In this document: positions 15,524-61,995 of the stretch, one piece after another | Layout of the letters: each line of letters starts with the position of its first letter | Numbering within the stretch: position 1 is the first letter of the stretch | Assembly (NCBI GenBank): GCA_951406725.2 | Contig: OX597817.1 | Span: 170,624,001 to 170,688,000 of the forward strand | Origin: Octopus vulgaris | Taxonomy: Eukaryota | DNA: 64,000 bases | Direction of reading: 5' to 3' | The notes under the pieces: model-generated | What the model was told of the DNA's origin: nothing | The model's database searches: none | Seen by the model: only the letters and a program-made list of their open reading frames with translations | Translations under genes and position numbers: made by a program

Positions 15524-15814
15524 TTAGAAGAAATGAGGTACTCAGAAATCCGGATGGTTTTATATTTGCAGATATTTATTGGCATGTTACATGTTTTTAT
15601 AAATCATATCTCATATATCATATATTAGCGCTTTCATCCATTGTAGTGGAGTCTTCAAATTGAACTCAATTTGTTCAATTTGAAGACTCCACTAGAATGG
15701 ACAAAAGCATTAATATATGATATATGATATATGATTTATAAAAACATGTAACATGCCAATAAATATCTGCAAATATAAAACCATCCGGATTTCTGAGTAC
15801 CTCATTTCTTCTAA
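15524..15814. repeat. Near-perfect hairpin, 142-bp arms with 7-nt loop, hammerhead-like core at the apex
   Basis: 15524-15665 versus 15673-15814; the left arm read on minus gives TTGAAGA-cTCC..GGAt-GAAA-GCGC-TA. Confidence 0.9.
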
Positions 15815-15950
15815 TATATAATACCTGTACATCATCTCCAAACCTTCTACAAGAAATCTAATGCGCTTGGCTTAGATTTCCCTTGGGGGCTGCCCAGATC
15901 GGAGCAATCTCAAGATTAATCAGCCGAAGTTGCGAAGATGATCCGGTTCT

Positions 15951-15981
15951 TGACTGATGATTGAGGGCTTCGAATGTCTCG
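15951..15981 (+). ncRNA. Degenerate minimal hammerhead
   Basis: GA-CTGATGA-ttgagggcttc-GAAT-GTC-TC; second box damaged. Confidence 0.35.
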
Positions 15982-16046
15982 TCCGTGTTTTTTGTGTCGT
16001 CTTCTAAATGTTTCACGTTCTTGTCCCAGTTTGTATATTTTTTTAC

Positions 16047-16759: not shown

Positions 16760-16800
16760 ATAAAAATTATCCAAAATGTACAGTATTGTATATTCATCAT

Positions 16801-16892
16801 AGCTGATCTTACCAATCGGTTTCACACAAGGAATACAATGGAGTGTTAGATAACAACCTGATTATATTACCTTACACTCATTAGAGTTAGCT
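16801..16892 (-). ncRNA. Degenerate hammerhead (G5A)
   Basis: Minus strand AGCTaaCT-CTAATGA-GTGTAAGG...CCTTGTGT-GAAAC-CGATTG-GTA-AGatcAGCT; homologous to 45304-45394. Confidence 0.6.
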
Positions 16893-16907
16893 GATATGGA
16901 AGGAATG

Positions 16908-18275
16908 TAGGAATCAGGATGTCCTCTGGTCCAACCTGATTTTCAGTTTGCATGGTTCAACCAAGATTGGAGGAAAATTTTTTGCTGCTTTGGACAAATG
17001 TTTACCTAAATCTAATCGGTATCATGCTATTTTTAATCAGCACACCTTGAAGGTCTCCTATACTAACTCTGCTAATTTAGAGCAACTTATGCATTGCATA
17101 AACAATAGCAAAATGCAACAAAGGTTCAATAACCCAACTACTGGATTTAGCAAACATACACATCCAAATCCTAACAAAGGAGATGTAAACTACAATGAGA
17201 AACACTAATTATGGCCAATTTGTAATAGGAGAAATACTTATGATACAGCTAACACAGTAACAACATTGGGAAAGGAAGTCAAGACTGCCTTATATACAAA
17301 TAAATTCTCATGCAGAGAAAAATCAAAATGTCCATTGATGAATCTCTGTATGTGTACAAATCTTGTATATAAATGTACCATGCACACAAGAGGAGGGCCA
17401 TATGTTTACATTGGGCAGATGAGCGATTCATTTAATAATTGTTATTGTAACCATGTCTCCAGCTTTAAAACAATGAATAAGAGATATTCAACATCTTTGG
17501 CTGATTTTGCGTGGTGACTAAAGAGGATAAAATGAAGTACAGTGTAACTTGGTCCAAAGTGAGGTACATGAAGCCTACATTATAATTTCCAGGATATGAC
17601 GTCTGTGTTCTGAGGAGTCCTTATCTATTCTGTTCACTAATGAGCAGATCATTAACAGAATTTCTGAAAGTCTCTTGAGATGCCTACACACATATAAATG
17701 TACTTTCACACAATGCAGTGGGAATGAATTTTGAGTAACTGTTAACATAATTTACTTCAAGGTATGGATGAATTAAGCTTATTTTTAATCTTCACATTTT
17801 TATAAACACCAAGTTGCTATTTAACTGTTTTTGTGATCATGAGTGCACCGAACCACATGTGTCCATATACTTACATTTTCGCAGATGCTTGCATGAGCAA
17901 GTGTACTTGCACCATGCAGCTTTCCCGAGGGCGTTTATACATCCTTATTTGTTAATGGTTATTTTTCTCACTGAATTGCATGTTTGTTTCTTTTCTTTCC
18001 ATCTGTGATTTTATTTTCGATTTTCTATATAAATGAAGATATTTCCTCCATCTGGCTGCTTTTCTTTCTACAAAATGAGAAGTTACATTGCGGAACTGTT
18101 AGTTTAATGAGTTGTGTCAATTTATCACCCGACGAGATACATCTGCACCACTGGATGCCCCCGAACCAGTTGTTGAGTGTCCTATTTGTGATGGATCAAT
18201 GCTAGATGTGTCGAAACAATTGTTGTGATTAATAATAAATTCTTGTGTATTTCATCTTACGTTTTTCATTTGCCA
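16908..18275 (+). mobile_element. Penelope-like element, 5'-truncated: RT tail, GIY-YIG endonuclease, pseudo-LTR
   Basis: DVLWSNLIFS..STKIGGKFFAALDKCLPK..IFNQHTLKVSY (cf. WFNPP..TNIG..F...DKHFP..IFNRNT.K.SY); SCREKSKCPLMNLC..LVYKC..VYIGQ..NHVSSF..STSLADFAW; then RLCSEE..IINRISE..RCLH; frameshifts and stops; 3' region carries a hammerhead and AATAAA. Confidence 0.9.
18124..18229 (+). ncRNA. Type I hammerhead in PLE pseudo-LTR (C at position 4)
   Basis: ATCAC-CCGACGA-GATACATCT...AGATGTGTC-GAAAC-AATT-GTT-GTGAT; 9-bp stem II base, 5-bp stem I. Confidence 0.8.
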
Positions 18276-18704
18276 TATATATAGATATATATGTATATAT
18301 TTCTTTATTGCCCACAAGAGGATAAACATAGAGGGAACAAACAAGGACAGACAAAGGGATTAAGTCGATTACATTGACCCATGTGCGTAACTGGTACTTT
18401 ATTTATCGACTCCGAAAGGATGAATGGCAAAGTTGACCTCAGCGGAATTTGAACTTAGAATGTAATGGCAGACGAAATACTGCTAAGCATTTCGCCCGTC
18501 ATGCTAACGTTTCTGCAAGCTCGCTGCCTTATAGATATATATGTATATATGTAATTAAATCAAGGATATAAATCCTCTTAAAGGGATGTCAGCATCCAAG
18601 TTCCCTGGTTTTATCCAGTGTATCAGTGAAAAACCAAAGATGTTAGCTTCACATTGATGGATCTGGATATTGATGGTTATTTTTCTCATACATACATACA
18701 TACA

Positions 18705-60997: not shown

Positions 60998-61398
60998 GTT
61001 TAACGTCCGTTTTCCGCGCTAGCACGGGTTGGACAGTTCGACCGGGGTCTGGGGAGCCAGGGGCTGCTCCAGGCTCCAGTCTGATCTGGCAGTGTTTCTA
61101 CAGCTGGATGCCCTTCCTAACGCCAACCACTCCGCGAGTGTAGTGGGTGCTTTTTACGTGCCACCTGCACAGGTGCCAGAGGGGTCTGGCATCGGCCATG
61201 ATTGGTTGGTGCTTTTTTATGTGCCACTGGCACAGAAGCCAGTCAAGGCGGTGCTGGCATCGGCCACGTTCGGATGGTGCTTTATATGTGCCACCGGCAC
61301 AGAAGCCATTCGTGCGGGGTTGGCATCGGTCACGTTCGGATGGTGCTTTTTATATATATATATAACATATATGATATATTATATATATATATATATAT

Positions 61399-61787
61399 AG
61401 CTATAATAAGTCTCTGAATGAGATGTAAACAGTAACTGCTCGACAACGTTTACATCCCATTCAGAGATTTATTATTGCTTGCCGACAGTTTTTCGAAATC
61501 AGTGATGGAAGTTACTGGAAAAACAATAAATAAATATTTGCAAACAGGTCTCCTTTCATCGAAAACCGGCGATTGCCGTACGCCGAAGACAGGCAAATAC
61601 CTAGAAACTGCAGTCCGTGCGTATCACTTAGGTTTACGAGAGAGGGATGACCTCCCTTTGCAAATACCATAAGGGCACAGAAAGTGTGCCTAAAGCTAGC
61701 TGGAGACGATGATCTCCTGGGGCTAAAAGCTACAGTAACACCCACCCTTAGTGGTTAGCCATATTGAGATGGCTAGTATACTTTACG

Positions 61788-61790
<3 letters not shown>
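61399..61790 (+). mobile_element. Structured hammerhead cassette in (TA)n
   Basis: 5' hairpin 61399-61430 / 61448-61479; hammerhead 61577-61621 CGTACG-CCGAAGA-cAGGcaaataCCTa-GAAAC-TGCA-GTC-CGTGCG; several 3' stem-loops. Confidence 0.85.
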
Positions 61791-61810
<20 letters not shown>

Positions 61811-61825
<15 letters not shown>

Positions 61826-61967
61826 AAATGAAGAAAATGCTGACAAAATAATTTAAGTAATTAAGTAATTTAATTAGGTGAAAGTTCTTTTTACCGGTTG
61901 CGCATTTGTTTACTTAAATTACTTAAATTATTTTGTCAGCATTTTCTTCATTTCCTTTTTTATATAT
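61811..61967. repeat. Fold-back inverted repeat in (TA)n, arms about 57 bp
   Basis: AAAAAAGGAAATGAAGAAAATGCTGACAAAATAATTTAAGTAA and its reverse complement; about 40-nt spacer. Confidence 0.9.
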
Positions 61968-61995
61968 CACAACTCGTGTTCCACATCTCCTTTTT

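Follow-up and report, generated by a model that had tools for sequence, protein, structure and literature searches.

Retrozymes without long terminal repeats have already been described from metazoans, and a link between them and Penelope-like elements (PLEs) is likewise in print (Cervera and de la Pena 2020, PMC7229834; Li, Clavereau and Pollet 2026, bioRxiv 10.64898/2026.07.22.740005). As far as the available text of these two sources goes, such retrozymes are dispersed monomers of a non-coding, highly self-paired head-to-tail unit of 150 to 450 nt (350 to 390 nt in mussels), with a GC content under 50% and a type I hammerhead built from a 6-bp stem I, a short stem II, and a palindromic stem III. 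Their mode of re-entry into the genome is called unresolved there, and PLEs are proposed as mobilisers from co-occurrence and pseudo-LTR (pLTR) homology.

PLEs leave a characteristic record at their insertion sites. In the accessible sections of Craig et al. 2021 (PMC8557442), the marks named are 5' truncation, an inverted 5' copy, a tail of 30 to 40 nt at one end, and microsatellite targets, of which the tail and the inversion have not been observed with LINE priming. The portion of Arkhipova et al. 2013 (PMC3846280) at hand reports inversions in head-to-head orientation, joints with microhomology, and mobilisation in trans for which the pLTR sequence alone suffices. In vitro, the PLE protein cuts both strands at AT-rich DNA and begins cDNA on uncut RNA at two internal positions past the hammerhead, between which the tail lies (Frangieh et al. 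2024, PMC11167929). A non-coding passenger is also known, the algal Chlamys MRC1, which in the available text of PMC8557442 forms head-to-tail insertions, lacks a canonical hammerhead, and has its 3' end in common with a known autonomous family.

Here, we describe an insert of 392 bases (61399 to 61790) in the genome of Octopus vulgaris, which is one copy of an abundant non-coding repeat of 356 bases. All positions refer to the window, by which we mean the whole stretch of 64,000 nt that was analysed (GCA_951406725.2, contig OX597817.1, 170,624,001 to 170,688,000, forward strand), an AT-rich piece of animal DNA that is rich in microsatellites and short repeats. The octopus unit is like the metazoan retrozymes in all the respects given above, and differs from them in the hammerhead core found in most of the contig depth. 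With the EN+ PLEs of the Hydra clade (PMC8557442) and Poseidon PAc (PMC11167929), in so far as these sources could be drawn on, it shares a hammerhead upstream of the 3' end, (TA)n or AT-rich targets, 5' truncation, an inverted 5' copy, a tail at one end only, and a reverse transcriptase (RT) start that would lie inside the RNA downstream of the ribozyme on an uncut template. In contrast to these PLEs, the unit has no ORF, closes on itself, has a tail of 46 nt, and shows no sequence match to Hydra-like loci; unlike MRC1, it carries a hammerhead-type motif. Our literature search returned no cephalopod retrozyme and no paper applying the anatomy of tail plus inversion to a retrozyme; the family may already be held in the supplements of PMC7229834, of the 2026 preprint, or of PMC4209133, or in the O. 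vulgaris repeat library.

The insert and its inverted left end

As the initial annotation had noted, TA tracts are found at both ends of the insert (Table 1); no target-site duplication is readable in the left flank. Its 32-bp fold-back is also present, the two arms (61399 to 61430 and 61448 to 61479) pairing with 3 differences in 32. This fold-back had been taken as part of the cassette RNA, which it is not: it is an inversion made at insertion. A reading of it as an evolved RNA hairpin was rejected, the structure being an inverted copy of the unit end plus a 46-nt extension. Since the unit closes on itself through 61789, a 14-nt link, and 61448, the left arm reads as an inverted copy of the unit, running 46 nt past the point where the right end stops. 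Inverted and sense pieces meet head to head and share an overlap of two bases (61448 and 61449).

The insert holds 15 CpGs, with an observed/expected ratio of 0.85 versus 0.42 for the window, so the claim that CpGs are preserved stands in its count, except that two of them arose from this copy's own changes. The young age deduced from them is not supported. Four listed changes of this copy are absent from 84 to 100% of the depth in related contigs, the arms carry the differences given above, and 628 of 4199 contigs in one run (X1) are at least 99% alike.

Several further features were observed in the window. Directly after the right (TA)n tract lies a second, unrelated fold-back insert (61819 to 61990) with an inverted left arm, a sense part, about 33 extra right-end bases, and TA on both sides, the same PLE-like anatomy. 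Between TA tracts, the segment 62026 to 62880 is very AT-rich and unlike the rest of the window. An inverted repeat with 142-nt arms, 96% complementary, stands beside a (TA)/(TG) tract at 15524 to 15814, and a repeat piece at 15845 to 16030 (+) shows a CTGATGA...GAA...GTC order that recalls a worn hammerhead and was missed by our descriptor.

Table 1. Features of the octopus insert and its flanks, in window positions
Feature	Position	Strand	Basis or value
TA-rich left flank, target microsatellite	61351-61398		sequence
Inverted piece: last 5 nt of the unit, 14-nt link, first 32 nt of the next unit	61399-61449	-	opposite-strand joints 61444/61789 and 61446/61786 in X1, X3, X6
14-nt link that joins 61789 to 61448 in other copies and closes the unit; contains TCGAGCA	61431-61444	-	link letters are the reverse complement
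Sense piece, 342 of 356 nt of the unit; crosses the uncut ribozyme site	61448-61789	+	contig joints
Hairpin upstream of the ribozyme rod	61488-61524	+	pair probability 0.96
Long rod extending stem I, carries the ribozyme motif	61537-61664	+	z -5.05, 0/100 shuffles
Type I hammerhead variant: C4 at 61584, C-A at 61590/61603, loop CAAAUA, palindromic stem III	61577-61621	+	predicted cut after 61615
Hairpin H1 (GGCAC/GTGCC)	61673-61691	+	probability 0.96
Hairpin H2 (inner stem GGAGA/TCTCC)	61694-61724	+	inner stem 0.97
Hairpin H3, after an AC-rich stretch	61742-61754	+	0.90
Hairpin H4 (TAGCCAT/ATGGCTA), last before the right end	61756-61775	+	0.97
(TA)n right flank	61790-61818		sequence

A non-coding unit that closes head to tail

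Part of the stretch is contained in 20 of 24 listed public runs, none of them listed as RNA; four of these, with three organism labels, were used: X1, which may be the window's own source run, X3, and X6, all three DNA-type runs, and X13, which we guess to be RNA and whose contigs were used as sequence only. Contigs fitting at 80% likeness or above number 4199 in X1, 4965 in X3, 1753 in X6, and 23 in X13; they cannot show RNA ends, strand, or circles. A head-to-tail joint from 61789 to 61448, with 14 letters between, is found in X3, X6, and X13, one 294-nt contig reading 61727 to 61789, the link, and 61448 to 61667 in a single piece, and the same unit junction recurs as opposite-strand joints (Table 1). 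It is crossed by diverged relatives too. The rest of the circle is bridged by overlapping contigs (61468 to 61662, 61614 to 61740, 61650 to 61773, and 61674 to 61786). The unit thus comprises 61448 to 61789 plus 14 bases, 356 nt in all, with a GC content of 43.5%.

No long ORF was found in this unit, the longest stop-free stretch being 83 codons over the six frames of the concatenated sequence. An ORF running on after 61786 was considered and rejected because the loose-end consensus lines, with an agreement of only 0.53 to 0.64, are mixtures. There is no LTR pair at the locus, where a single unit sits between the TA tracts. The earlier label of a retrozyme-like element is thus supported by the contig joints, which show an ORF-less unit closing on itself head to tail. 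As to the proposed check for tandem copies, no second copy was found in the 64-kb window, and no array with two whole ribozymes was seen among the contigs, which cannot tell arrays from insertions longer than a unit. Two units, as expected of a retrozyme locus, are not found here, the insert holding one ribozyme motif and less than one unit in sense. Exact-pattern scans of metagenome and viral contigs gave no match to the element.

In five of the 15 joints listed, the inverted tail is joined to a sense piece with a more 3' start (61558, 61686, 61693, 61723, and 61734), and four more are inversions elsewhere. The short side of most joints is only 24 to 43 letters long (63 in X13), called at 80% likeness, and a contig assembled from short reads may combine several copies. 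In X1, X3, and X6, summed depth is 148- to 231-fold higher over the last hairpins than over 61525-61538, with the deepest cover over 61735 to 61776; as contig depth measures neither copy number nor the relative abundance of gene parts, we take it only as an approximate indication of polarity, to be read together with the joints. Cover over 61497 to 61510 is 5- to 9-fold above the minimum. We also observe a recurring alternative left flank before 61725 (27, 36, and 10 contigs), which resembles an inverted, diverged tail piece in 11 of 13 letters and may mark a short derived subfamily that spread by itself.

A hammerhead motif with a variant core

The initial annotation had placed a hammerhead with a GUC triplet and a site after 61615 in this insert, and such a motif is present in the sequence, with a variant core and a cleavage that is predicted. 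All six pairs of stem I (61577 to 61582 with 61616 to 61621) form, the core reads CCGAAGA (61583 to 61589), stem II (61590 to 61603) has three pairs with its first, C-A, mismatched, and GAAA (61604 to 61607) leads into the palindromic stem III and the GUC. The three-helix junction, the open stem I, the GAAA, and an NUH site are thus all present in order. A descriptor of this arrangement, written after the motif had been seen, gave one match in the window, none in 60 window shuffles, and none in 5000 shuffles of the element. No Rfam hammerhead family matched at gathering score, nor among the 17 matches at E values up to 10, which fits the two core departures, U4C and the C10.1-A11.1 mismatch. 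Compared with the consensus core C3 U4 G5 A6 N7 G8 A9 (PMC3088659), this copy has C4, and the pair expected between 10.1 and 11.1 at the base of stem II is C-A.

Across the contigs, 61584 is T, the canonical U4, in 26 to 39% of the depth, and 61603 is C in 11 to 17%. A sister core with U3-A8, U4, and G10.1-C11.1 occurs in a loose-end group of 12 X1 contigs; U3-A8 covariation of the hammerhead core is described in the available part of PMC4209133. Because the contigs show U4, C at 61603, and the U3-A8 sister core, the motif is kept across the family, whose majority form has C4 and the C-A mismatch. U4C is known, from the sections of PMC3088659 at hand, as a natural slower variant that is less active in vitro, yet sufficient for a viroid in vivo, and cleavage is described for a retrozyme of the axolotl in which the corresponding pair of stem II is a U-U mismatch.

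This copy carries a private C at 61570, where more than 99% of the depth has another letter. With the C, a slipped helix is predicted at a probability of 0.92 and stem I at 0.03; with the family letter, stem I reaches 0.78. Stem II stays at 0.12 even with the majority letters. The folding model suggests that the ribozyme of this particular copy is likely misfolded. For stem III, a self-duplex between two copies is predicted at -12.5 kcal/mol, much as in dimeric animal hammerheads, in which stem III pairs between copies. As candidates for a loop 1-loop 2 tertiary contact, the loop CAAAUA and the URC bulge after the 6-bp stem I may resemble the Schistosoma motif. The core departures, the lower in vitro activity of U4C, the missing Rfam match, and the stem II probability weigh against our overall reading of the element. 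Since this copy departs from the strict core and holds less than two units, we class the element, on its sequence, as a variant that would work like a non-LTR retrozyme, and not as a proven active member.

Hairpins downstream of the predicted cut

Folding of the 392 nt gives a z score of -8.7, which is inflated because the fold-back is included; the circular unit scores -4.2 (0 of 60 shuffles). For the 174 nt after the cut the value is -2.9 (1 of 100 shuffles), and for 61666 to 61789 only -1.7 (4 of 100). A comparable value is obtained for the opposite strand (z -4.3), so that folding energy by itself does not discriminate between the strands. Some copies end at the 3' side of the hairpin upstream of the rod and continue into TA, and in the loose ends behind 61505 the stem of this hairpin is kept with another loop.

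Serial hairpins after the cleavage site had been claimed with four stems, and the arms of all four are present in the sequence. Three of these, GGCAC/GTGCC, GGAGA/TCTCC, and TAGCCAT/ATGGCTA, form in the unit at probabilities of 0.96 to 0.97, whereas AGGGA/TCCCT has a probability of 0.00 in the unit and pairs (0.87) only when the 3' piece is folded by itself. We rejected the latter as a conserved hairpin: its bases pair in the rod, and 61644 G>A, found in 26 to 51% of the depth, breaks the hairpin and fits the rod.

Variation in the contigs was used as a check on covariation. Of 72 variant rows, 40 were listed and 39 of these used, 61449 (depth 5) being left out. Twenty of the 39 fall at paired sites, where 14 keep or restore the pair, 5 break it, and 1 is unresolved. 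Pair-keeping variants (14 of 20, or 12 without the two compensated ones) compare with an expected rate of approximately 0.23 to 0.38, giving a binomial P of 0.004 at the highest expected rate and 0.04 without the two compensated rows, for rows that are not independent and a pairing model derived from this copy. Within H1 to H3, 6 of 7 stem variants are compatible with the stems and 8 variants lie in loops or linkers (39 of 72 rows). H1 shows a G-C pair as G-U in about 30% of the depth and as A-U in one contig, and H2 shows A-U changed to G-C; both double changes, that of H1 being deduced from depth sums, come from one diverged X13 contig. The outer stem of H2 has a probability of 0.72 with the majority letter at 61697, H3 is disrupted by 61744 A>C in 14 to 20% of the depth, and H4 has no variant among the 40 of 72 rows listed. 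Among the four claimed stems, three are upheld, H1 and H2 with compensatory changes in that single diverged contig, and AGGGA/TCCCT is not; the five pair-breaking variants count against our reading.

That the downstream stem-loops serve as the RT recognition signal is plausible from the sequence. The idea is compatible with the right end of this copy lying 14 nt past the last hairpin, with the position of the deepest cover, and with the two compensated hairpins. An ATG at 61769, within H4, opens 30 codons across the unit junction. A SECIS or a tRNA head was considered and rejected, ARAGORN finding no tRNA and Rfam giving no match.

Probable insertion by a Penelope-like element

We propose, at a probability of roughly 70%, that the family is a non-autonomous retrozyme-like element that is reverse-transcribed in trans by a (TA)n-targeting PLE, from two fixed internal starts on an uncut circular or multimeric RNA. 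Because the insert ends look like those left by PLEs, a PLE enzyme likely pasted the insert. A tail at one end and a head-to-head inverted copy are present, as is 5' truncation with a common 3' region and a (TA)n target, judged from the skip joints, the polar cover, the TA following the loose ends after 61505, and the flanks. Where metazoan retrozymes have been tied to PLEs by co-occurrence and pLTR homology in the available literature, the argument here is drawn from tail, inversion, truncation, and (TA)n. An ORF with RT and GIY-YIG between pseudo-LTRs is absent from the element, and the tail of 46 nt counts against the PLE reading, being above the 30 to 40 nt described.

The proposed cycle would begin with transcription of head-to-tail copies. 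These multimers are predicted to be cut into 356-nt monomers by the ribozyme, which probably dimerises through its palindromic stem III, and a host ligase would close the monomers. A PLE protein would then bind the hairpin region downstream of the cut and nick both (TA)n strands, with cDNA synthesis beginning inside the RNA at two constant positions, 174 and 220 nt past the predicted cut. We infer that these correspond to the right end of the sense piece (first start) and to the outer end of the inverted piece (second start). By the geometry read from the sequence, synthesis from the first site would account for the right end, 342 nt long and unbroken across the uncut ribozyme site, and synthesis from the second site, 46 nt further on, for the 51 nt of the left end; joining of the two ends head to head over the 2-base overlap would produce the fold-back. 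Many copies end earlier, as the joints show, and carry 5' truncations whose extent we infer. As the sense piece spans the cut site, the template must have been longer than a cut-to-cut linear RNA, or circular. The priming itself is the conditional part of this account; the head-to-head geometry is observed.

Hydra-like elements as possible partners

In favour of the PLE reading, the window contains the 3' half of a decayed Hydra-like PLE at 16800 to 18290 (+), with an RT thumb, a cysteine linker, and a GIY-YIG-type nuclease. It carries stops and frameshifts, a worn hammerhead-like motif near 18190 to 18235, and TA tracts on both sides. A word search starting from it returned nothing, and Pfam nothing significant; HMMER found 462 relatives, proteins of 700 residues with an RT and a C-terminal nuclease, whose N-terminal motif matches Hydra-clade proteins in the consulted part of the PMC8557442 supplement. 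The same supplement, as far as available, includes a complete Hydra family of O. bimaculoides that targets (TA)n, and the accessible text of PMC13282606 gives 31 recently active PLE families for O. vulgaris. Hydra and Neptune are the likeliest partner clades.

No nucleotide match of the unit was found to 77 Hydra-like loci (best E 0.3), none by eye to the shown ends of Hydra-1_Obim, and the unit's 30-codon frame is unlike the Hydra-like N-termini with which it was compared by eye. A hammerhead-like motif lies near the ORF ends in 38 of the 77 metagenome Hydra-like loci, these hammerheads having a long stem II as opposed to the 6-bp stem I and short stem II of the octopus unit. One locus (L033) was observed to have a hammerhead-like motif with a CCGAAGA core 295 nt before its ORF. 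Among 49 loci examined, 15 have an upstream hammerhead, and in 11 of these an ATG follows the cut by 142 to 163 nt; the distance in the unit is 154 nt.

A hairpin of the form GCTC-N(8-17)-T[CT]GAGCAC precedes the Hydra-like ORF twice in 24 of 48 loci, once in 13, and is absent in 11 (scan of 130 nt upstream of the ORF start, L002 to L072; 15 matches in 180 kb of ORF background). Examples of the twin hairpin are L011, L019, L021, and L063; the loci are in part related among themselves. Of 18 scorable 3' pseudo-LTR ends, 15 lie -1 to 8 nt before the first hairpin arm and are mostly followed by TA-rich repeats. The GCTC/GAGCAC hairpin is likely the RT-start signal that defines the tail in Hydra-like PLEs. 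The published Hydra-1_Ajap consensus, in the part seen, begins 2 nt before such a hairpin; the words hairpin and stem-loop are absent from the main text of PMC8557442, as available, and our literature search found no account of GAGCAC hairpins. At the octopus unit junction the heptamer TCGAGCA is present with an imperfect partner arm, and it occurs 21 times in the 128 kb of the window's two strands. The two ends of the unit break the Hydra-like spacing rule of -1 to 8 nt before the GCTC arm, and the order of motif and ATG differs.

Alternative explanations

PLE-type ends in contigs would also be expected if the family were mainly the pseudo-LTR of an autonomous PLE with its ORF elsewhere, the closed 356-nt form being a minor deletion derivative or a short-contig chimera. 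The ATG at 61769 falls at the distance from the cut seen in Hydra-like loci with an upstream hammerhead, its frame is open through the tail, as the available text of PMC3846280 describes for rotifer PLEs, and contigs with another left flank recur before 61725. A 22-nt window will, however, readily contain an ATG by chance, the GAGCA motif precedes the ATG in Hydra-like loci and follows it here, and the recurring flank resembles an inverted tail piece. The whole circle is bridged by contigs, its junction is crossed by diverged relatives, and the raised cover over 61497 to 61510 fits copies running from the tail to the upstream hairpin. We consider the pseudo-LTR explanation unlikely.

LINE insertion also yields 5' truncation and inversions; in twin priming, the inverted piece is the neighbour of the sense piece at its 5' end and shifts when that end shifts. 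A fold-back could arise in this way in a SINE-like repeat carried by a LINE that targets microsatellites, and LINEs of the Dong-R4, RTE, and CR1 groups are given as recently active in O. vulgaris in the accessible text of PMC13282606. The octopus tail, however, is inverted alike whether the sense piece starts at 61448, 61686, 61693, 61723, or 61734, and the element ends in neither poly(A) nor a simple repeat belonging to it and lacks a tRNA head, which makes a LINE origin very improbable. Spread as a satellite at the DNA level, through unequal crossover or circular DNA, with the ribozyme as a relic and without an RNA step, would agree with head-to-tail junctions in DNA-type runs and with a majority core that looks impaired; in the available part of the 2026 preprint (bioRxiv 10.64898/2026.07.22.740005), 8 of 9 Xenopus dimers tested did not cleave. 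Polar cover, the fixed inverted tail, and the (TA)n flanks speak against it, as do variants that keep RNA pairs, G-U intermediates included, and we give this explanation the least credence of all.

Implications for retrozyme mobility

Elements of this kind are already known, and the gain from the octopus family is mechanistic, with no new class: its insertion records the proposed PLE mechanism. A PLE signature on a non-coding ribozyme unit yields two exact candidate RT start sites and a short hairpin region upstream of them, and these predictions fit directly into the published in vitro PLE assay. With three natural core variants in one family, it may be tested whether cleavage helps or hinders spread. 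More tentatively, and with considerable doubt, the family could be the genomic record of a PLE dimer that primes both DNA ends from two fixed sites on circular retrozyme RNA, with a hairpin signal related to the twin GCTC/GAGCAC hairpins of Hydra-clade PLE 3' ends, and with a top lineage that spread with a damped ribozyme (U4C, C-A) as uncut circles made the better template. If true, this would provide a mechanistic link between animal retrozymes and a single PLE clade and identify the signal in cis.
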